A stretch of DNA of 43,909 nt from a virus (taxonomy: Duplodnaviria > Caudoviricetes): positions 1 to 43,909 of the IMG/VR virus record IMGVR_UViG_3300037461_000364, one strand, 5' to 3'. The translations under genes and the position numbers were made by a program. The notes below the pieces were generated by a model. It was given only the letters and a program-made list of their open reading frames with translations. It had not been told where the DNA came from and ran no database searches. Below are positions 6,472 through 41,615 of the stretch, piece after piece. Position 1 is the stretch's first letter. Each line of letters opens with the position of its first letter.

Positions 6472-8768
6472 GCCAGAGCCTGCCGCATGGCGCTCGCATT
6501 CCGCTGCACCGCATTCATGATGATGCGCTCCCCTGACGCGCTGCCGAGAAAGTCGCCGACCACCGAACTGTCGAATGCGTTGATGATCCGGATATTCTGC
6601 GGCGCCGCAGGCCGCAGGCTTTCGCGCTGCTGCTCCTTCGTCAGCACCCGTTCACCCTTCTGCAGAATCGCCGGCACCTCATCACCAGCGAATCCGCCCT
6701 GGTGGAATCGCGGCGCACTGGCGAACGCGAGCGCCGGGACTGTCCGCGTGAAACTCGCCCCACCGGGTTCGCCGACCACTCCCCCCTTATGGAATCCGAG
6801 CGCGGCAATGCCTGCGCCGATGATTCCCCCTACTTCTCCCGTCGACCCCATATTTCTAAAAAGCGCCTTGGCAAGCTGAGCAGCAACAGCCTCGGCCAGC
6901 ATGCGCTGAACAACCTCAATGAACTTCCGCAACATCCCGTCGAGTCCCTCGCTGAACGGGTCAAACAAAAAATCCGCCATCGCCGACTGGATATTCTTCG
7001 CGGCAGACTTGGCGAACTCATCCATTTCCTTGCCGGTATCAGAAAGCTCCTTCTTCGCGTCCTCCAGGTCGTACTTCTTCGCGTCGCGCGCCGACAGCGC
7101 CTCGGTCAGCTTGCCGCGCAGTTCCAGTTCCTCGCGCATCGGCTTCAGCATCTCCTCAGTCGCCCCGCCCTCCCTGGCCATCGCCAGAGCATCGGTCAAC
7201 CGCGCCTGAATCACAGCCGAAATCTGCGCCTCGGTCAGCCCGTAGACCTCCGTCTCTTCCTCGGCCTTGGCGATCCGCTCGATCATCGCCTGCGTCGCCT
7301 TGACGTTCGCCTGCTCCTGGCGCTCCACATTGCTGCGGAACTCCTTGTACGCCGCGTTCTTCTTGTCCAGCGCCAGATACTCCTTCCACTCCGCCTCAGC
7401 CGCCGCGTACTGCGCCGCCGTCAGCTTCTTGCGCCCGCTTTCGACATCAGACTGCCACTTCGCATGCTCGCGCTCGGCAGCCGTCAGCTTCTCGGTCGCG
7501 TTCAACTCCAGGTTGGTCACGGCGATGCGCTCCTGCAGCGTCTCCATCGTCCGCTCGTAATCCGACACCCTCGCCGACCCGCCGCCGCCACCCCGCGCGC
7601 GCGGCGCCGGCTTATCCCTCACCGGAACCGGCGCATTCGGCTTGGCCTCGTCAGCCGCCTTGGCCGGCTCCAGCTTGTCGCGGAATTTCTCCATTGAAGC
7701 GATCTGGTTGCGCAGCACGGTAACGCGCTGCTCCAGATCGCCCTTCTTGCCGAAGACCATGCGGCCCAGAAGTCCGGCGTTCGCCGGGCTTTTTAGGTCG
7801 GCTTCCAGCCCGGCCAGTTCCGACTTCATGCCTTTCAGTTGCGCGTCGACAGACAGGTCAGCTTTCGACGGCCCCAGGATCACGTCGAATGGAATCTTCC
7901 CGATGCCGGCGATCCCGCGCAGCACCGCCAGCACCCCATGCCCCTCGATCTTCAGTTTGACCATCTCGGCCGCCGTATCCGCCAACGAAGGGATGAGGTC
8001 TTGCCCCAGGGAAATCTTCACACCTTCGGCGGCGGCTTTCAGCCGGGTCAGGTCGTCATTCAGCGCGTCGGCCTTCTTCGTCAGATCCTCGCCGAAGACC
8101 ACGCCCAGCTTGTGCGCCTCCTCGGAAGCGTCGCGCAGCCCCTGCGCGCCCTGGTTCAGCAATGGGATCATCCGCACCCACTGCCCGCCGAGCGCGTCCT
8201 GCACCAGCGCCGCCTTGGCCGCGCCGTCACGATACGAGGCAATCTTGTCCGCCACTTCTTCGAGCAGCTGGCGGCTTGTCTTCATTTCCCCGTTGGTATC
8301 GGTGACGGAAATGCCCATCGCCTTGTATGCCGCAGACGCCTGCCCGGCGCCGCGCGCGGCGTCCTGCGCCTTGTTGGCGAGCGTCTTCATCAGCGTCGCC
8401 ATTTCTTCCATCGACGCATCGTTCAGCTCGAAGGCGTAGCGCAGCTCGGAAACCGACTCCGTCGACTCGCCCATGCGCTGCGACAGCTTGTCGATCTCGT
8501 CGGCCGTGTCCTTGATCGCCACCGCCGACGCCAGTTGCGCCGCCGCCCAGGCAGCGATTCCGGCCGTTGCTGTCGCCACCACCGAGGTCAACGCAATCGT
8601 CGCCCCCTCCATCATGCCGGCAGCCGCCGAAGACTCTTTCAGCCCGCCGCCTGCCGCAATGGCGTTCTCCTTCAGCCCGTCAAGCTCGCGCGCCGCCTGC
8701 GCGGTCGCGCCCTTGAACCCGTCGACGCTGCCGACGACATCAATCCGCACATCGTTCTTGTCGCTCAT
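6468..8768 (-). CDS. Tail tape measure protein
   Basis: 766 aa, Ala/Glu/Lys-rich and helical; C-terminal FHKGGVVG...PRFHQGG...EVPAILQKGERVLT motif. Confidence 0.9.
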   Translation of the reverse strand: MSDKNDVRIDVVGSVDGFKGATAQAARELDGLKENAIAAGGGLKESSAAAGMMEGATIALTSVVATATAGIAAWAAAQLASAVAIKDTADEIDKLSQRMGESTESVSELRYAFELNDASMEEMATLMKTLANKAQDAARGAGQASAAYKAMGISVTDTNGEMKTSRQLLEEVADKIASYRDGAAKAALVQDALGGQWVRMIPLLNQGAQGLRDASEEAHKLGVVFGEDLTKKADALNDDLTRLKAAAEGVKISLGQDLIPSLADTAAEMVKLKIEGHGVLAVLRGIAGIGKIPFDVILGPSKADLSVDAQLKGMKSELAGLEADLKSPANAGLLGRMVFGKKGDLEQRVTVLRNQIASMEKFRDKLEPAKAADEAKPNAPVPVRDKPAPRARGGGGGSARVSDYERTMETLQERIAVTNLELNATEKLTAAEREHAKWQSDVESGRKKLTAAQYAAAEAEWKEYLALDKKNAAYKEFRSNVERQEQANVKATQAMIERIAKAEEETEVYGLTEAQISAVIQARLTDALAMAREGGATEEMLKPMREELELRGKLTEALSARDAKKYDLEDAKKELSDTGKEMDEFAKSAAKNIQSAMADFLFDPFSEGLDGMLRKFIEVVQRMLAEAVAAQLAKALFRNMGSTGEVGGIIGAGIAALGFHKGGVVGEPGGASFTRTVPALAFASAPRFHQGGFAGDEVPAILQKGERVLTKEQQRESLRPAAPQNIRIINAFDSSVVGDFLGSASGERIIMNAVQRNASAMRQALA

Positions 8769-15522: not shown

Positions 15523-16686
15523 TCAGCGCCGGTCGACCAGCATGTCGGTCTTCTTCTGCGACCCAAAGCTCGTCCCCAGCCAGAACCCGGTCGCCCCGGC
15601 AACGATCAGCGACAACACCGAAGACACCACCATCGCCCGGATTTCGTCGCTCCATCCCCCCATGAACAGCACCGCGCCGACCACCAGGTACGCCAGCGGC
15701 AACAGCATCATCGTCACCAGCATCGCCGGCGACAACAGCGGCCGCTCGCGCGCCTCGACATCCGCCTGCCGGGCGCCGGCAATTCCGCCGCCGCCGGCCT
15801 CGCCGACCAGCGTGTACCATTTCTCCTCGACCGCTGCCGCGAAGTTGCGCGCCATCTGCTGATCTTCCTGGATGCGCATGACCGCGCCCTCGGTCGTCTC
15901 GGCGCCGGTCACGGTCCGCGCCAGCGCCGCCACCGTCTCGGCGGTCTTGGCGTTTTTCTCCGACTGCTCGCCGTTGCCGAAAATCCGGATCAGCGACGGG
16001 GCCGCCTGCATGAGCCACGGGAGCGCGGCCATAATGAACGGGGGCATGCTGAAAAATCCTTTCTTGGGTTCGGTCTTCTGCTCGCCGGCCGGCGCCGCAG
16101 CCGAAGCCGGCGCGCTTGCCTGAATGCGCGGCGGTAGTGGTGGAGTGTCAATCGGAGTGTCAACAGCAGGGGCCGGATGCGGCACTGCCGGCGCCGCAGC
16201 CGGCACCGCCTGCCCGCCCGTCAACGGCGCCGAAGACGATCCCGGCTGCTTCGCCAGAAACGCCAGGCATTTGCTCATCGAATGCGTCGGCTGGCCATAA
16301 GGCGAACCCGGCAGGCTGGCCCACTCGCGGTTGCACGCCGTAATCGCGTTCTCCCACTGCCCGACGATGACGAAATCCAGTGCCTTGCGCCGGTCGATCA
16401 GGAACAGCGCCGCCAGATCCTGCGAGCGTTCGCTGAAGTCTTCCAGGTGCAACGCCTTCGCGCACTCGTCCCAGGTCGTCGTCAGGAACTGGTAAGCACC
16501 CGCCGCCGAAGAAGTGATCGGCCGCCCGCCAAGCATCCGCGTCACCTTGTGCCGGGGATGGTCGGCCAGAGATTCGAACTGCTCGCCACCGAAAAGCGTG
16601 TGATACCCCGCGCCCTCCGTATGCCGCAGCAGCGCCAGAAACGCCTGCACGTTATGGTTTTCCAGCAGTGGCGAATAATTTCTCAT
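15523..16686 (-). CDS. Endolysin (lambda R / GH104 lytic transglycosylase) fused through a Pro/Ala linker to a holin-like membrane domain
   Basis: AFLALLRHTEG, SSAAGAYQFLTTTW, SQDLAA and EWASLPGSPYGQP are lambda-R-like. The C-terminus has two TM helices and ends GFWLGTSFGSQKK. Confidence 0.85.
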   Translation of the reverse strand: MRNYSPLLENHNVQAFLALLRHTEGAGYHTLFGGEQFESLADHPRHKVTRMLGGRPITSSAAGAYQFLTTTWDECAKALHLEDFSERSQDLAALFLIDRRKALDFVIVGQWENAITACNREWASLPGSPYGQPTHSMSKCLAFLAKQPGSSSAPLTGGQAVPAAAPAVPHPAPAVDTPIDTPPLPPRIQASAPASAAAPAGEQKTEPKKGFFSMPPFIMAALPWLMQAAPSLIRIFGNGEQSEKNAKTAETVAALARTVTGAETTEGAVMRIQEDQQMARNFAAAVEEKWYTLVGEAGGGGIAGARQADVEARERPLLSPAMLVTMMLLPLAYLVVGAVLFMGGWSDEIRAMVVSSVLSLIVAGATGFWLGTSFGSQKKTDMLVDRR

Positions 16687-16703
16687 AACGCTCCTTTCAC
16701 CCG

Positions 16704-16752
16704 ACTCTATCCGGCATCCCGATGCATTTCACGGGGCGAATCATCACGCCGC
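16704..16752 (-). promoter_or_regulatory. Putative late promoter of the lysis/fibre operon
   Basis: Minus strand reads GCGG-N12-CCCC-GTGAAAT-GC-N14-TAGAGT; spacing is identical to the other three copies. Confidence 0.6.
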
Positions 16753-16798
16753 GTTTGCCTGCCATATCCAGAATGGACGGCGGGATTGCCGTCCACTT

Positions 16799-17128
16799 CT
16801 AGTTAGAGCCATACTCGTATTCGGCCAGTTCGTCAGCCACGAATCGGTCGAATGCCTCGTCGGCACGATTCCTGAATCCTTCGCGCGCAAAGCTGATCTG
16901 TTCGTGCCACTCGGTCGGAACGACGCCGTTCTCCACCATCACCCGGTAGCGCCAGGCGTCTTTAAACACAGGGCCGTCCTCGATGGTGAGCAGCGTTGCC
17001 CGAATGCAATCGCGGGCATAAGTGCGCACGCACGCGCTGATGGTGTCGCGCTCGTCTTGCGTTTCCGCCCCGCACGCCTTGAACAAATACTCGGGCACGT
17101 CATCAACCACAATTCGTACTTCCAGCAT
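16799..17128 (-). CDS. Hypothetical protein in cassette 1 (inverted relative to attC)
   Basis: 109 aa with SD GGAGAG upstream. The stop TAG (16799-16801) lies just outside the cassette. Confidence 0.7.
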   Translation of the reverse strand: MLEVRIVVDDVPEYLFKACGAETQDERDTISACVRTYARDCIRATLLTIEDGPVFKDAWRYRVMVENGVVPTEWHEQISFAREGFRNRADEAFDRFVADELAEYEYGSN

Positions 17129-17206
17129 GTCTTGCTCTCCGTTTCAAGCGCCGGGCTCTAACCCGGCAGTCCAGCGGACGCCGTTTCGGCGCCGCTGACT
17201 TCTGCG
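16803..17206 (+). mobile_element. Integron gene cassette 1
   Basis: Begins G|TTAGAGCC (16802-16810). Its inverse core GGCTCTAAC (17154-17162) is the exact reverse complement, as expected for a cassette that can circularise. Confidence 0.85.
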
Positions 17207-17212
17207 TTAGAA
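17156..17212 (+). mobile_element. attC: attC site 1 (57 bp)
   Basis: CTCTAAC-CCGGC-AGT[C]CAGCGG[A]CGCCG-TTT-CGGCG-CCGCTG-ACT-TCTGC-GTTAGAA. It has R''/R' boxes, 5-nt spacers, L boxes, and two unpaired bases that are extrahelical G and T on the bottom strand. Confidence 0.9.
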
Positions 17213-17490
17213 GGCGTTGGTTGTGTCTCGTGGTCACAATCAATGCAGCGCAACAGCGTGCGCGGCCCTGGCCATCCGTACTGCTTCACCTCTTTGTAGC
17301 GGTGCGCTCCACCGTTCATGCAGTCGGCTTGCGCAGTATCGTAGTGAAACGAAATCGTCGTCGTGTAAGCAAAGGTCTTGTCGCACTTTATGCAAGTTTG
17401 CTGGTGCGTTTGTCCTTCTTCGTAGCCGTATCCGTCGTCGTGGTTTATCTCCACGTCAGCCCCACAGTAGGGGCATTCAGCATCTTCCAT
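17158..17490 (-). CDS. Cys-rich (zinc-ribbon-like) hypothetical protein in cassette 2 (inverted relative to attC)
   Basis: CPYC, CIKC and CIDC pairs; strong SD AAGGAG. The last 15 codons and the stop run through attC1. Confidence 0.8.
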   Translation of the reverse strand: MEDAECPYCGADVEINHDDGYGYEEGQTHQQTCIKCDKTFAYTTTISFHYDTAQADCMNGGAHRYKEVKQYGWPGPRTLLRCIDCDHETQPTPSNAEVSGAETASAGLPG

Positions 17491-17571
17491 TTTTCACTCC
17501 TTTTCCGTGTTGACCGTAGCCTTCTAACTGTGCTTTCAACCGGGACGGCTTCGCCGCCCGTTAAAGCGGCG
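17207..17571 (+). mobile_element. Integron gene cassette 2
   Basis: Begins G|TTAGAAGGC (17206-17215). Its inverse core GCCTTCTAAC (17519-17528) is the exact 10-bp reverse complement. Confidence 0.85.
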
Positions 17572-17577
17572 TCAACC
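17522..17577 (+). mobile_element. attC: attC site 2 (R' box degenerate, fused to the portal stop codon)
   Basis: TTCTAAC-TGTGC-TTT[C]AA[C]CGGG[A]CGGC-TTC-GCCG-CCCG-TT-AAA-GCGGC-G|TCAACC. Confidence 0.8.
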
Positions 17578-18954
17578 ATTCCCGATACTCGTAGCGCTCT
17601 CGCCCTTCGGCGCATTTCCCGGCGTGATCTTGATCCCCGGCACCGTCCCGGCCGGCGCCGTGCTGCCGACCGGCCCAGGGTACGGATCGCCGCGCTGCGC
17701 CTGCGCGTCGAGGCGCTCGCGAACCATCTCGGCGTTGAATCCCATCTCCTCATAGATCATGTCGCGCGGCAGGCCGATCGCGCCCCACTTCAGCATGCGG
17801 TCGGTCGTCTGGCTCGGCGTCTCGGTGCGCCGCTCGGCGAAGCTGATCACGTACTCGTCCGGGTCAGGAACCATGCCCTTGAGCAGCAACTGCAGCCGGA
17901 AGCCCTCGGAATACGCGAAGGCCAGCGTGTCCTGGAACACATCGACCTCCTCGTAGTAGTCCCGCTTCAGATCCTCGAGAATGTCGCGCGCCAGTCCGTC
18001 GGTGTAGCCCATCAACCCCTTCGGCAACGGCGACCCGGCGAAGAAGGTATCCAGCAGGTGCACCACGTCGCCGATGTCCGACAGGTTCGCATCGCCCTGC
18101 ACCGCCGACACCCCGCCCTTGCGGTTCATGTAGAAGTCGGTCGTGATCTCGCCCTTGTCCTTCTCAACCTGCGCCCGGTAGGCGTCGAGGTCGGCCTGCG
18201 CCGCGCCCTCCAGCACGTGCGCCAGGCGCAGCGGCGCCCGGTGCCGGCGACGGATCACCAGATCCTCCTCGGTCATCCGCAGCTTGCGCCACACCTCGCG
18301 GCTGGCGTCGAGGAATGGCCGCCCCATCGACCCCACGTCATCGTGCGAATCCGGATCGAAGCGGCACAGCAGCAACTGCCACAGCGGAAAGCCGACCAGC
18401 TTGGCGCCCGTCATCAGGTCGATCTGCCAGTAAGCATCCTTCACGTCCTTGAACCGGCCGCCGTCGTCCACGTTCGGCAGGATCGTCTCCGACGGCATGC
18501 GCACCGCAGCCGTCACGTTGTTGTTCGCGTCCACCACCCACTGCAGCGGCAGGTTGCCCTCCATCGCCAGCCCGCGCGCGTCGCTTTTCAGCTTCTCGAC
18601 GCGATGCAGCTGCAGCCGCCGCGCGAACGCCTCCCACTCATCTACCAGCGAACGCCTGGGCGCCGCCTGCGTGAACACCAGCCCGCCCTTCACCGTGTCG
18701 CGCGCAATCCGGCTGTGGATGCGCCGCACCCGGCCGTCCAGCCGGTCCATCTCGCGGATGTCGAGAATCGCCTGCCTGACCTCGGGGTCTACCCACATCA
18801 GCCGGTACAGGTACTTCAACTGGTTTTCCGGCGTCGTCCGCCGGCCCACCTCGCTGTCGCGCACCGCCGGGCTCGCCTGCCCGCTCGGCAACGTCGCCGC
18901 CCCACCCGCCTTGCCCGTCAGCCGCGCCCAGATTTCATTGAGTCCCATCGCCAT
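17572..18954 (-). CDS. Portal protein
   Basis: About 460 aa downstream of the terminase; GRPFLDASR..WRKLRMTEEDLVIRR..RAP motif typical of portals. The start could instead be 18948. Confidence 0.8.
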   Translation of the reverse strand: MAMGLNEIWARLTGKAGGAATLPSGQASPAVRDSEVGRRTTPENQLKYLYRLMWVDPEVRQAILDIREMDRLDGRVRRIHSRIARDTVKGGLVFTQAAPRRSLVDEWEAFARRLQLHRVEKLKSDARGLAMEGNLPLQWVVDANNNVTAAVRMPSETILPNVDDGGRFKDVKDAYWQIDLMTGAKLVGFPLWQLLLCRFDPDSHDDVGSMGRPFLDASREVWRKLRMTEEDLVIRRRHRAPLRLAHVLEGAAQADLDAYRAQVEKDKGEITTDFYMNRKGGVSAVQGDANLSDIGDVVHLLDTFFAGSPLPKGLMGYTDGLARDILEDLKRDYYEEVDVFQDTLAFAYSEGFRLQLLLKGMVPDPDEYVISFAERRTETPSQTTDRMLKWGAIGLPRDMIYEEMGFNAEMVRERLDAQAQRGDPYPGPVGSTAPAGTVPGIKITPGNAPKGESATSIGNG

Positions 18955-19189
18955 TCCCTTCAATCAGGCGCACGCTCGCCACGTTCCGCCAGCCATCGAT
19001 CAAGCCTTCCGTGTACAGATCCTTCACCACCCCGACCGCCTCCGGCAGATGCCCCTCGATGAACGCCTTGGTGCGCGTGATCCGCTCCCGCTCCGCCTCG
19101 GTCAACGGCCCCGCCGCCGGCCGCGCCGTCGCCACCATCACGGACGCCGCCGCCACCTTGCCCTTGATGCCGGCGCAGGTCGCGCTCAT
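18935..19189 (-). CDS. Hypothetical protein
   Basis: 84 aa, coupled to its neighbours; LYTEGLIDGWRNV motif. Confidence 0.65.
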   Translation of the reverse strand: MSATCAGIKGKVAAASVMVATARPAAGPLTEAERERITRTKAFIEGHLPEAVGVVKDLYTEGLIDGWRNVASVRLIEGNGDGTQ

Positions 19190-31293: not shown

Positions 31294-31649
31294 TTGGCCT
31301 TGCCTCCAGCCCCGAGCGCGTCGCGGATCGTCTTGCGCAGCACGCCGGCCGCCACCCGGTGAATCGACCCGTCCGGATAGATCAACCCGAGCGCCTTCGC
31401 CCTGCGCAGAGCCACCAGGCCCGGCCCCAGGGGAAGCCCGGAAAGCTCCACAGCCTCGCGCTCGTTGAACTCCACAGCCAGCCACAGCCGGTCAAGGTTC
31501 GCCAGGTCGTGCTGTACGCCACTTTCCTCCCGCCGCACCATAGGCCACACCGCCAGAATCCTCTGCAACGCTAAATCCTGCACCACCAGCGCCGCCACCT
31601 CGTTGTTTTCGTGCGCCCGCAAGGCATCACAAGCCGCTTTCAGATCCAT
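31290..31649 (-). CDS. Hypothetical protein coupled to the serine recombinase
   Basis: TAATG overlap with the recombinase stop; 119 aa MDLKAACDAL...GLIYPDGSIH. Confidence 0.7.
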   Translation of the reverse strand: MDLKAACDALRAHENNEVAALVVQDLALQRILAVWPMVRREESGVQHDLANLDRLWLAVEFNEREAVELSGLPLGPGLVALRRAKALGLIYPDGSIHRVAAGVLRKTIRDALGAGGKAK

Positions 31650-33256
31650 TATCCACCCCTGCTGATATTGACAGCCCGCCCGCGCCGAAGCCTTCCAGGC
31701 AAGGCAACAGACAGCATGTCGGTTCGCAATGTAGCCCTGTCCGGGAGCCACCGGACATCCCATTGTGAACACCCACTCCGGGTATTCACAATGCGCTCCG
31801 GCAGGTACTCCAGCATCACGCTGCCGTCGTCCAGCACCGCGCGCTGCAGCACGTGGCGCAGAAACTCCCGCACCTTCGCCGGATTCTCCGCCGTCACCAG
31901 GATGTCGCGGAATATCCGCGCCGCCATCGCCACATCCCCAGCGTCGACTTGAGTCTGCGGGCCGGGGTCCGCGTCGATTCGCTCGATCTCCACCCGCAGC
32001 CGATCCTGTTGCGCCCGCAGCTCGCGCAACCGGGGGGCGATGTCGGCCAGGTTGAGGCCGGCGCCAGCCTCGATCGTCTCGTACAGCTTGCGCAGGCGCC
32101 GCTCGACGCCGGCCAGCTCGTCGGCAAGCGTGTCGATTCGCGCCTGCTTGTCGCGCGCCCACTTCCCGCACTGCGCCTTGATGTCCATGACGATGCGCGC
32201 GACGTTCTCGGCCGTGAAGATTCGCGTCGCCACCGCGTCGAGAAGGAAGGCATCGAGCGCGGCAACCGGAACCCGACGACTGGCGCAGCCCATCCCCTTC
32301 AGGAATGACCGGCAGTTGTAGTAGTGATACCGCGTCCCGGCCCGCCCGGTCGCTGTTTCCGTGTACATCGGCTGCCCGCACTTGCCACAGACCAGAATCC
32401 CGGAAAACGCCGCGTCGCTGCGGGGGCGGCCGCCCACCCTGGACGGCGCCCGCGCGCTGATCTTCTCCTGCGCCATGTTGAAAACCTCCTCCGTCAGGAT
32501 CGCCTCGTGCGCGCCAGGCGTCACGATCTCCCGGCCTTTGTCCTTGAACACGATCTGTCCGATCAGCGCCCGCGAACGCAGCACCGACCCCACGGTCGCC
32601 TTGTTCCACCGCCGCCCGCGCATGCCGATTCCGGATTCATTGAGGCGCAGCGCAATCTCCTTCTGCCCGGCCCCGTCCAGACACCAACGGAACACCGTCT
32701 TGACCACCATCGTCTCGCTGGCCACGGGGGCGAGCTTCTTGCGCTTGCCCATCGGCACCGCCTGGTATCCGAACGGCACATGCCCACCATTCCAGAACCC
32801 ATCGGCGGCATTTTTCGCCATCGACCGCCGGGTATCCTTGGCAATCGACCGCGAATACTGCTCGTCCATGATCGCAACGATGCTTTCGATCATCCAAGCC
32901 TCGTCCGATTCACCGAAATCCTGCGAAACGAACACCAGACGGGCGCCGATTTTGTCCAGAAGCCGCTTGTTGAGCGCCGCATCGATGTGATTGCGCGCAA
33001 AACGGCTCGAAGACCAGCACACGAAGTAGTCAATCCGCCGATCTTCGCAGTAATCGAGCGCCGCCTGGAAGCCCGGCCGGTTGCTCGTTCTCCCGGAAAT
33101 CCCGTCATCCCGGAAGACCTCGATCACACGGGCGCCCAGGGCCGCCGCTTTCGCGCGGCACTGCTCGATCTGGCTTTCCACCGGCAACCCGTCCTCGGCC
33201 TGCCGCGCCGTGCTCACCCGAGCATAGATAACCGCCGTTTTTTCCCGCTCTCTCAT
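31649..33256 (-). CDS. Large serine recombinase (resolvase + recombinase + Zn ribbon + coiled coil)
   Basis: YARVST catalytic Ser, DDGISGRTSNRPGF, SRFARN, GGHVPFGY, SGILVCGKCG...YYNC. Confidence 0.95.
   Translation of the reverse strand: MREREKTAVIYARVSTARQAEDGLPVESQIEQCRAKAAALGARVIEVFRDDGISGRTSNRPGFQAALDYCEDRRIDYFVCWSSSRFARNHIDAALNKRLLDKIGARLVFVSQDFGESDEAWMIESIVAIMDEQYSRSIAKDTRRSMAKNAADGFWNGGHVPFGYQAVPMGKRKKLAPVASETMVVKTVFRWCLDGAGQKEIALRLNESGIGMRGRRWNKATVGSVLRSRALIGQIVFKDKGREIVTPGAHEAILTEEVFNMAQEKISARAPSRVGGRPRSDAAFSGILVCGKCGQPMYTETATGRAGTRYHYYNCRSFLKGMGCASRRVPVAALDAFLLDAVATRIFTAENVARIVMDIKAQCGKWARDKQARIDTLADELAGVERRLRKLYETIEAGAGLNLADIAPRLRELRAQQDRLRVEIERIDADPGPQTQVDAGDVAMAARIFRDILVTAENPAKVREFLRHVLQRAVLDDGSVMLEYLPERIVNTRSGCSQWDVRWLPDRATLRTDMLSVALPGRLRRGRAVNISRGG
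31761..31793. repeat. 14-bp inverted repeat inside the 3' end of the serine recombinase gene
   Basis: CATTGTGAACACCC-ACTCC-GGGTATTCACAATG (13/14 paired). Confidence 0.8.
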
Positions 33257-33978: not shown

Positions 33979-34995
33979 TCACGCCTTGCATTTCTTGATC
34001 TGCGCCAGCAGCGCACTGACCGGCGTCTTGATCTTCGCCAGGGGATTCGACCTGTCGACTACCTTGGTCAGCTTCCGTAGCGCAAGCTGCTGATAGATCG
34101 ATGTCGACTTCGGGTCGGCGTGCCCCATGAGCCGCTGGGCAGTCACGGTAGGGATGTCGTCCTCGGCCAACTCGGTGCCGTAGGCGTGGCGCAGCGCGTG
34201 CGGATGTAGAAGCGAGGGGTCGATGCCGGCCGGTATGCCGTAGTGCTTCATCCAGTTGGTGATCGTCTTGCGGTGGATGCGCCGCTTCTCTCCGTGGTAT
34301 TCATGGGCCGGGGTATTTGGCCTGGAGAATGAGGTGAACAGCACCTTGTCACCGTTCGGAAGCAGGCGGTCGATGGCGTGAAGTTCCGGGTGCTCCATGT
34401 AAAGCTGCAGCAGCAGCGCAGCCTGCTCCGGGATCGGAATCACGCGCTCGCGGCTGCCCTTCTCCATCACCTTCAGGAACAAGCGCGGAAGCCCGTCGAC
34501 CGTATCCTTCACCACGTTCGACTCGTTGAGGTTGATCAAACCGGAAGCGCGCAGACCGCAGCCGGCCAGAACCGCGAACATCGCCGCATCGCGCACACCC
34601 CTGAGCGTCGAGAAGTCCGGCGCCCACATCAGTTTCTCGATGTCGGCCAGGCGCATCGTTCGCGGGATCTTCACCCCGACCTTCGGCTGCGGAACCCCCA
34701 GCGCCGGATTCTCGGCAACCAGCTTGCTGGCCTTCGCCCACAGGAAGAATCCGCGCACCGCCGATATGTGCGTGCGCCTGCTCAGCGGGTTTATCTGGCC
34801 CAAGCTGAACAGGTGCGGCCCGGTGAAGGCGATCAGGTCGTCAGGCGTCGCCGTCAGCGGGTTCCGGCCCAAGCCGGTCATGAATTTTTCGAGCCGCGAA
34901 AGCGCCAGGCGGTAGACCTCGGCCAGCCTCGGCGAGCGCCCCCGGTTGTGGCGCATGTAGTCCAGGAAGTCGTCAATATTGTCTGAAAAGCTCAT
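33979..34995 (-). CDS. XerC/D-like tyrosine recombinase / integrase
   Basis: N-terminal SAM-like domain; catalytic R (GCGLR), K (EKG), HALRH, MGH, and Y (STSIY). ATG at 34995. Confidence 0.95.
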   Translation of the reverse strand: MSFSDNIDDFLDYMRHNRGRSPRLAEVYRLALSRLEKFMTGLGRNPLTATPDDLIAFTGPHLFSLGQINPLSRRTHISAVRGFFLWAKASKLVAENPALGVPQPKVGVKIPRTMRLADIEKLMWAPDFSTLRGVRDAAMFAVLAGCGLRASGLINLNESNVVKDTVDGLPRLFLKVMEKGSRERVIPIPEQAALLLQLYMEHPELHAIDRLLPNGDKVLFTSFSRPNTPAHEYHGEKRRIHRKTITNWMKHYGIPAGIDPSLLHPHALRHAYGTELAEDDIPTVTAQRLMGHADPKSTSIYQQLALRKLTKVVDRSNPLAKIKTPVSALLAQIKKCKA

Positions 34996-35031
34996 GAGAA
35001 CCTCGAAAAGGGGGGGTATAGGGAAAACACG

Positions 35032-35389
35032 GGTGGATTGGTGGATATTGGTGGATAGCACCGTAAGCCATTGAAAACAAAGCGTTTAGAATCCACCACA
35101 ATCCACCAATTGCGCAAAAAGCGAAGTACAACTGGTGGATTAAAAAATAGGCACCTGTTTACTTTGGTGGATGCCTCTTGCTCTTTGGTGGATGCCTTTA
35201 TATTCTCTTTCTCTTTGATTATTAAGAGAAAAAGAGAAAAAGAAGGGCAAAAACGGCGAAATGACCGCGTGGAAGAATCTCCGCATTTGGTGGAAGAATC
35301 TCCGCATTTGGTGGATTTAAGAAGGCATTTGGTGATGCAATACATGTCCACAATCAATGACTTAGCATCAGCAAGGCCCATGATCCACC
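35032..35389. repeat. Putative replication origin with GGTGGAT/ATCCACC iterons and an AT-rich core
   Basis: About 10 copies in both orientations, a 21-bp tandem repeat (GTGGAAGAATCTCCGCATTTG x2), and an AT-rich imperfect palindrome near 35203-35238; lies just downstream of the primase operon. Confidence 0.75.
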
Positions 35390-39243: not shown

Positions 39244-39427
39244 CGATTTTTCCCTCCAAATTCACGCCAGCCTTCCATTCCTCGATCGCCTGCTGGAACA
39301 GGCGCCCGGCCTTGCCCGCCATGTGCGCCACCCAGCGCTCGCCAAGGTGCTGACCCTTGTAGCCAAGAGCCAGCGCCTTGTAGCCAAGCCGGGTCAGGCG
39401 TTTTTCCCTGTCCGACAGCACGCGCAT
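39227..39427 (-). CDS. Hypothetical protein
   Basis: TGATG coupling with the upstream gene; 66 aa MRVLSDREKRL... Confidence 0.55.
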   Translation of the reverse strand: MRVLSDREKRLTRLGYKALALGYKGQHLGERWVAHMAGKAGRLFQQAIEEWKAGVNLEGKIVEKTF

Positions 39428-40330: not shown

Positions 40331-40686
40331 TGATGCACCTCATCAGCAGGCTCAAACCGCTTCGCTAGGTTCTCGAAGATCGCGCTTCCGCGCTCGAAGT
40401 AACAGTGCACTTCCTGCAAGGCGTTGGAGTCCATGCGCAACACTGCCAGGCAGTCGCTCATGATTTCGTAATCGAGACTGCGCAGGCTGTTCAAGTCAAA
40501 CGGGAAGCGGCGCCCGTTGTAGCAGCCGAGCAGGAGACGCGCGACGCGGTTGCTCTGCCCCGTATCGCGCAAGGCAATCGGCAACAATCGGCGAAGCGCC
40601 TTCTCGCCGGCAATACGGTCCTGAGCGACGTGCGCATGAAGGTACATCGCGCTCATGTATTCCGGAATTTTGGATTCGTCATTCAT
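40327..40686 (-). CDS. Conserved hypothetical protein of mobile elements
   Basis: ATG at 40686; ALRRL..IA..DTGQS.RVARLLLGCYNGRRFPFDL..LRSLD motif. Confidence 0.75.
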   Translation of the reverse strand: MNDESKIPEYMSAMYLHAHVAQDRIAGEKALRRLLPIALRDTGQSNRVARLLLGCYNGRRFPFDLNSLRSLDYEIMSDCLAVLRMDSNALQEVHCYFERGSAIFENLAKRFEPADEVHQ

Positions 40687-41354
40687 GCCGCAGCCCTCCC
40701 GGCAAACTCGCGCCTGACCCGTGCCGGCGTCATCCGCACGTCGCGCAGCGGGAATGCCCGCGCCACCAGTTCGGCGCCGCCGCCCGTCGTGCTGTCCCGG
40801 CTCATCGTCAGGTAGCGCATGCACGAACGCGGGTCGCTATGCCCGAGCAGCCGCGACAGCCGCGCCAGGACGAAGGCCGGATTCTCCGAAGCCGAAGACC
40901 CGACCACCGATGCCGCGAAGGCATGGCGGAACCAGTGCGGGGAAATCCCCTCGTCGATGCCGGCCAGCCGAGCCCACACCTTCAGGCCCAACTGGAACGC
41001 CCGCACGCCCAGCCGGTCGCCGTGCCGGCCGACCACCAGCGGCGCATCAGCGTCCGCCGGCAAGCGCAGCGCCAGCAGGTCGTGGAACGCCTGCCCGGCC
41101 CCGGCGACCAGGTGCACCGTCAGGTCGCAGGACTCGCCCTTGCGCCTAGCTGCCGGCACGAACAAATACCCAAGGCGGAAGGCCGTTGTCGCCTCGCCCG
41201 TGCTCAGGCTCAGAAACTCGCTGATCCGCATGCCGGTCGTCAGCAGCACCCGCATCGCCGCCCAATCGCGCTTCGCCTGCCAGTCCCCGCGCGTCTTGAA
41301 GAATCGGCGCAGCTTCGCCTCCTCCTCGAATGTCAGACACCTGTTGCCGCTCAT
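40683..41354 (-). CDS. Small tyrosine recombinase (catalytic domain only, 223 aa)
   Basis: TGMRISE, RKG, SPHWFRH, LLGH and MRY give the full catalytic set; no N-terminal binding domain; GAGG SD. Confidence 0.9.
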   Translation of the reverse strand: MSGNRCLTFEEEAKLRRFFKTRGDWQAKRDWAAMRVLLTTGMRISEFLSLSTGEATTAFRLGYLFVPAARRKGESCDLTVHLVAGAGQAFHDLLALRLPADADAPLVVGRHGDRLGVRAFQLGLKVWARLAGIDEGISPHWFRHAFAASVVGSSASENPAFVLARLSRLLGHSDPRSCMRYLTMSRDSTTGGGAELVARAFPLRDVRMTPARVRREFAGRAAA

Positions 41355-41615
41355 TTCCTCTCTCTCCTTCAACATCGCGCGCGTCGATGGCCGCGCACAC
41401 GCCAACGTAGATGACGACAAACGCCGTCGCCTCAACCCAGTTCCTGACTCCCACCTTTCCGTTCCCCGCCGTTGTTGCAAACCATTCCCGCCGCTGCCAG
41501 CTCGTCACGGAACAACGCCGCGAACGCCACCGGCCACGGCACCCCGCCCAGCGACACCGCGCAGCCCTCTGGCACGTTGTCGCGCACCGTCAGCGAACGC
41601 GGGTCGACCGCCTGC

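Follow-up and report, generated by a model that had tools for sequence, protein, structure and literature searches.

Integrons are generally seen as belonging to bacteria and, of late, as repositories of genes directed against phages. The locus described here raises the question of how integron-type cassettes could enter and leave the genome of a phage which encodes no integron integrase of its own. The window, that is, the whole stretch of 43,909 nucleotides that was analysed, is a complete IMG/VR virus record (100% complete) with terminal repeats, in which the minus strand carries almost all of the genes. The gene content points to a temperate tailed phage, since tail, head, primase and repressor-type genes are present together with a large serine and two tyrosine recombinases. 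The recombinase genes (31649-33256 for the serine enzyme, 33979-35061 and 40683-41480 for the tyrosine enzymes) are all housed within the 44-kb phage.

The cassette array was located between a portal-like gene and an endolysin gene, in agreement with the preliminary description, which had placed it between portal and lysis genes. The portal-like gene (17572-18963, minus strand) forms the right flank, upstream in phage transcription, and gives weak matches to phrog_104 and phrog_213 (portal) and to phrog_19480 (head morphogenesis); its product has 98% amino acid identity to that of the sister phage G001. The left flank is the endolysin gene (15523-16686, minus strand, phrog_90).

Recombination sites, cassettes and cassette genes

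The attC sites were characterized by folding and by a covariance model. Twenty intI-flanking regions of Rhodocyclaceae genomes furnished 60 bacterial attC sites, and the strand was as expected in every case; 41 of the 60 sites, with a length of at most 73 nt, together with two sites from locus L036, gave the 43 sites of the model. The first site, attC1 (17156-17212, 57 nt), is canonical. It has 5-nt spacers, an L'' box AGTCCAGC which pairs with the L' box GCTGACT, and a GTT core, and it scored 44.5 bits (E 2e-7). Its bottom-strand fold had a z value of -5.3, and none of 200 shuffled sequences folded equally well. The unpaired C and A lie on the plus strand, which is therefore the top strand of the site, so that both cassette genes are on the bottom strand.

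The terminal site, attC2 (17522-17577, 56 nt, plus strand), is degenerate. Its core is G|TCAACC where GTT would be canonical, its L boxes contain one mismatched pair, and 7 of 200 shuffles equalled its fold (z = -2.2); with 11.8 bits (E 1.4) it was the second-best match of the window and fell narrowly outside E<1. This core is the end of the portal gene itself, the stop codon TGA being read backwards at 17572-17574, and attC2-like sites on other contigs run on into a canonical GTT core. The degeneracy may lock the last cassette in place. The full attC anatomy previously attributed to both sites thus holds for attC1 and not for attC2, with its GTC core and L-box mismatch, and the covariance-model search proposed at that time, carried out here with a model built from Rhodocyclaceae, gave a clear match for the former and a borderline score for the latter. 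The median attC length was 61 nt for 65 phage sites compared to 71.5 nt for the 60 bacterial sites.

Two cassettes are delimited on the plus strand, cassette A of 404 bp (16803-17206) and cassette B of 365 bp (17207-17571). The start of each was said to complement its own inverse core, and this proved exact, over 9 bp for cassette A (GTTAGAGCC at 16802, GGCTCTAAC at 17154) and over 10 bp for cassette B (GTTAGAAGGC at 17206, GCCTTCTAAC at 17519), each of the four sequences being single-copy in the window. Such runs are rare by chance: among the 9,140 GTT..AAC pairs of the window lying 200-1000 nt apart, complements of at least 9 bp occurred in 4 and of at least 10 bp in 2, and both phage cassettes are counted among these few.

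It could be argued that the genes are morons and that the hairpins between them represent terminators or palindromes arisen by chance. One terminator-like match is indeed present (16774-16795), where 1.1 would be expected by chance, and attC2 is not significant alone. Nevertheless, the score of attC1, the exact core complements, the G|TT borders found on other contigs and the invariable position of attC downstream of the attI motif described below refute this reading, which we regard as scarcely credible.

Gene A (16799-17128, minus strand, reversed relative to attC) encodes a predicted all-helical protein of 109 aa with no assigned family, and gene B (17158-17490, minus strand, likewise reversed) a Cys-rich (CxxC) phage protein of 110 aa belonging to phrog_6504, of unknown function. 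Both have Shine-Dalgarno-like starts inside their own cassettes, GGAG preceding gene A. Neither is stopped ahead of its core: gene A runs through its own core and takes its TAG stop from the attI spacer, and gene B reads on through attC1. The labels SD, L box and DR1 used in this work are assignments by analogy.

No Pfam or NCBIfam family was matched by either protein. The Atlas matches of gene A all remained below 0.85, and those of gene B were to unnamed viral clusters only. Fold searches gave nothing for gene B at E<=0.001, and for gene A a best Z of 5.2, to non-specific helices. In the bacterial genomes of the order of G006 each gene had 0 matches in 401, in a search run without a positive control. 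Database homologues of gene A are labelled Ralstonia, Nevskiaceae and Nitrospira. From these sequence comparisons the cargo is judged to be phage-type. No match to the module was obtained by blastn against cultured phages and plasmids. The RNA run X5 held two short pieces of it as unstranded contigs, with no sign of expression. A search for a Pc promoter revealed no sigma-70-like site within 16600-17800, and the genes face the opposite way.

The attI-like site and the empty slot

The module which interrupts the portal-endolysin region spans 16739-17571. Its 833 bp exceed the two cassettes by 64 bp, and this excess forms the left arm (16739-16802) of a site of 70 bp (16739-16808, plus strand) ending in the core G|TTAGAG, likely an attI landing site by its sequence. 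The arm comprises an upstream box (16748-16756), a DR1-like element (16768-16781), an L box (16790-16796) and a 5-nt spacer (16797-16801). Immediately before the cut, 14 bases are identical to one intI-adjacent bacterial attI. Bacterial attI sites have about 10 bp more than this arm between their upstream box and DR1; three viral loci have the same short spacing as the arm. The locus is accordingly not the bare attC cluster of the preliminary description; judged by sequence and position alone, an attI stands at the head of the array as in a complete integron. To the left of the first core lies a hairpin which could be taken for a terminator or a decayed attC, a notion rejected in view of the likeness to bacterial attI; no match to this hairpin was obtained in a scan of IMG/VR.

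A position weight matrix was derived from bacterial attI sites, the ends of which were set by locating the starts of first cassettes in Rhodocyclaceae integrons. Fourteen of the 20 integron loci were used, class 1 being held out, three having no first-cassette match and two remaining unused. On leave-one-out, 11/14 bacterial attI ranked first. Position 16802 ranked second among the 1,029 GTT sites of the window and kept this rank when the most similar training site was withheld, and the head of the array in G001 ranked second among 1,050. The matrix, trained on one bacterial family, is family-specific, the class 1 attI ranking only 244/356, and it was poor for four of eight other phage array heads (22/150, 62/249, 63/171 and 78/315).

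The attI-like motif occurs once in the window, compared to 0.02 occurrences expected. In IMG/VR it matched 32 viral loci, 13 of which (about 10 independent) also had attC matches, and all 29 of those attC matches lie downstream of the motif on the same strand. Of the 24 bases that precede the searched motif, the closest viral loci have 13-15 in common with the window. No intI was present in the flanks of any of the 32 loci, and none of 10 whole viral records checked, nine of them fragments, passed the IntI cut-off. In 301 genomes of the bacterial family, the pattern with one mismatch allowed was found in 38 places compared to about 24 for a reversed control, so that most of these matches are due to chance. 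Five of the bacterial places adjoin intI and five others head forward arrays with no adjacent intI. The latter are solo attI-like sites on Rhodocyclaceae chromosomes, heading forward cassettes with no flanking intI (L168, L169, L170, L174/L202 and L195). The genomes G028 and G613 each have one intI-adjacent attI-like site and one solo site, which we take, by inference, as a precedent for IntI acting on a distant attI. An ordinary xis-int pair lies directly beside the attI-like site in three further loci (L204, L217, L226), where the reversed cassettes are found just upstream of the excisionase gene.

The comparison with relatives proposed in the preliminary description revealed empty slots and no other cassettes at the same place. 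In the sister phage G001 (complete, 43 kb, 72-91% nucleotide identity over common blocks) the endolysin gene follows the portal stop after 52 bp, the slot is empty and no target bases are lost; the same arrangement was found in two metagenome contigs. Removal of 16739-17571 in silico gave a gapless alignment to G001 (102/117), L028 (101) and L010 (87). The relatives found had only empty alleles or unrelated inserts in the slot. The site is variable: in L010-L012 and L014 the portal stop is followed by an additional small gene or by unrelated DNA of about 140 bp. Two weak attC-like matches were also noted on the opposite strand about 2 kb downstream of a portal relative associated with Zetaproteobacteria (L019 6266-6649, L035 6587-6970).

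The module would have used GGCG|TCAACC, at the stop codon of the portal gene, as its point of entry, with no loss of target and either by the action of IntI at a secondary site or by a crossover at short microhomology. GGCG is present at both junctions, which makes a microhomology origin possible. It is known that non-att sites can receive cassettes through IntI, which may also excise outside the insertion point (SALIN/attG, bioRxiv 10.1101/2022.09.11.507474), the secondary-site consensus being GWT (bioRxiv 2022.09.11.507474). The phage array resembles such insertions in that its terminal junction is plain phage sequence, and differs from them in that the target is G|TC, outside the GWT consensus, that an attI arm is carried along and that two cassettes are present. 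A second array, in L033, ends likewise: its terminal attC (7315-7371) finishes at G|TCA and there overlaps the stop codon of a native gene of 93 aa (7366-7647), which favours the use of such sites by IntI.

These junctions bear on a different reading, in which the attI and the two-cassette block were copied once from the array of another phage by illegitimate recombination at GGCG, exchange has since ended and the genes are ordinary morons. The paired GGCG, the degenerate attC2, the shortened attI arm, the unrelated inserts in L010-L014 and the failure to find any alternative cassette fill agree with it. It is opposed by the intact attC1 and by the right junction, which falls at the IntI cut position as does the end of the array in L033. 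Considered with the evidence on mobility given below, we hold this single-copy origin to be unlikely, though it deserves more weight than the other alternatives.

Mobility and orientation of the cassettes

A contig of 4.6 kb from run X6, which belongs to another study, contains positions 16811-17210 of the window with 2 differences in 400 bp (99.5%) and one or two further letter changes just inside the left core. On its left this copy of cassette A is joined to another attC arm ending in G|TTAGAG and on its right to a different cassette start; both borders are at G|TT, and a similar second attC follows 558 nt on. Such identity in another array, with exact borders, indicates recent movement and speaks against the cessation of exchange which the single-copy origin entails. 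A homologue of gene A (79%) in L027 is also an attC-bounded cassette with other attC sites, and homologues of 80-85% identity have no attC in three of four viral loci. Gene B is flanked by attC in 15/80 loci (about 8 independent) and, in addition, in G001; in the gene-B cassettes of G001, L024, L086, L087 and L131 both the attC sites and the neighbours differ. According to PMC4889954, it is unknown where cassettes come from. A handle on cassette birth is offered by gene pairs of which one member has attC and the other has none, and near-identical phage genes of both kinds bring the question of origin within reach.

The array of G001 is placed elsewhere, at about 38250-36190 (L031 16188-18320); the corresponding place in the window, near 39270, is empty. 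It is attI-headed and reversed, with four attC sites, and carries a gene-B homologue, a DNA methyltransferase, an unknown gene and a dATP/dGTP pyrophosphohydrolase-like gene. It is followed by a small block of two genes enclosed by direct repeats. Related arrays contain genes for methyltransferases as well as Mom-like and Lar-like genes.

Cassettes may also be lost by another path. L210, L224 and L225 share the attI and the first cassette with L227 and lack two further cassettes, a loss which was mediated by a repeat of 9 bp internal to the attC sites and did not occur at G|TT, leaving a chimeric site. IntI is therefore not the sole route of change, and slippage of this type would also suit a block no longer exchanged. 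The search for excised forms which had been proposed gave no support, as no excision joint was found among the contigs of the probable source run X1, which drop rare variants; this, too, agrees with a single-copy origin. Taken together, the empty sister slot, the occurrence of cassette A elsewhere with G|TT borders and the association of gene B with other attC sites support, at the level of sequence, the earlier claim that A and B are integron-type cassettes moved as units.

Genes A and B are encoded on the attC bottom strand, co-directional with the phage genes, and not on the top strand as is usual for cassette genes, an orientation on which the preliminary description did not remark. All 52 attC matches in 84 loci were oriented opposite to the anchor gene. 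A longest-ORF test gave a weak result for phage cassettes (24/33 and 16/28), was too crude for GC-rich phage DNA and was replaced by a PHROG test of 50 cassettes (two of the 52 were left out, their top-strand ORF being shorter than 20 aa), in which PHROG matches fell to bottom-strand ORFs in 23/50 (19/45 without anchor genes) and to a top-strand ORF in 1/50. In the bacterial control the longer ORF was on the top strand in 79/85 cassettes. With reversed genes the slot would suit phage cassettes, and bacterial ones would lie antisense to the flanking genes. The proposal that the phage is a cassette vector is weakened, as far as bacterial cassettes are meant, by this orientation and by the phage-type cargo.

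Source of the integrase and relation to known systems

The absence of an integron integrase, as first described, was upheld: no protein of the complete record exceeded the cut-off of the TIGR02249 profile (265 bits), the two tyrosine recombinases reaching 34 and 20 bits and having no IntI insertion. A betaproteobacterial host, for example a member of the Rhodocyclaceae, is likely. A portal relative (75%) resides in a Rhodocyclaceae genome which has IntI, and IntI above the cut-off was found in 36/61 genomes of this family. It is established that IntI acts on the folded bottom strand of attC and recombines it into attI, that a given attI is for the most part served by its cognate IntI, and that intI is under SOS control (PMC5027507, PMC8946536, PMC4889954).

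We consider that the locus is probably an integron platform devoid of integrase, with a likely attI and two reversed attC cassettes, at which host IntI, acting in trans as we infer, would insert and excise phage accessory genes. New cassettes would enter at the attI-like site, and cassette A would thus be younger than B. Phage transcription is expected to run from portal to lysin and to enter the array at its far end, so that expression would be confined to reversed cassettes and the newest one would lie farthest from the promoter. Expression would then proceed by read-through from the portal side, in a mirror image of bacterial integrons, and SOS-induced host IntI would be present when a temperate phage is induced.

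Either tyrosine recombinase of the phage (33979-35061 or 40683-41480) might instead move the cassettes without host IntI. Both enzymes are kept in G001 (83% and 91% identical), itself array-bearing, and in the 360-aa enzyme the catalytic residues are preserved and a short segment is present which XerD lacks. Such a role is nonetheless very improbable. The genes lie 16 and 23 kb away from the array, the products lack the IntI insertion, no homologue flanks the other phage arrays examined, the enzyme beside attI in L204, L217 and L226 is that of the ordinary xis-int pair, and the attI-like site resembles the partners of bacterial IntI.

The recruitment of host IntI remains the preferred reading, and it is tempting to extend it, with about even chances of being right, to a phage mirror-image integron system in which a family of phage attI sites draws in host IntI by mimicry of the host attI. 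These sites would serve reversed cassettes that are formed from ordinary phage genes and make up a pool of their own. If true, reversal would prevent host cassettes from being expressed in the phage, and phage cassettes in the host, and phages would exchange their own accessory genes via the same host enzyme. The locus is an unusually clean test case, as it combines a complete genome, an empty-slot sister, a near-identical cassette elsewhere and candidate cognate integrases.

Compared to the sedentary chromosomal integrons of Rhodocyclaceae (intI-attI-attC), the phage array has the same attI core region, attC anatomy and complementarity of starts and inverse cores. It differs in having no intI and no recognizable Pc, in its bottom-strand genes and phage-type cargo, in its shorter attC and in the attI arm, shorter by about 10 bp. 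The attI-headed CALIN of the Shewanella prophage M16-3 has intI in the same prophage (PMC9892861).

Phage CALINs, that is, attC clusters without integrase, have already been described, e.g. in Tetrasphaera phage TJE1, and five of six phage attC sites recombined with IntI1 (Qi et al. 2023, PMC9892861); the main text of that report presents neither an empty-site relative nor a phage attI family. What appears to be new here is the reversed phage cassettes and the phage attI family without intI, on neither of which a paper was found in the literature covered, mostly that outside subscription journals. The present array resembles the phage CALINs in its attC cassettes without intI and in its small accessory genes (methyltransferases in related arrays), and is unlike TJE1, whose three attC sites and annotated genes share one strand, in the reversal of its genes. 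In TJE1 (L235, 77-1519) the annotated orf1 and orf2 were seen to read into the attC sites and not to stop at the inverse core.
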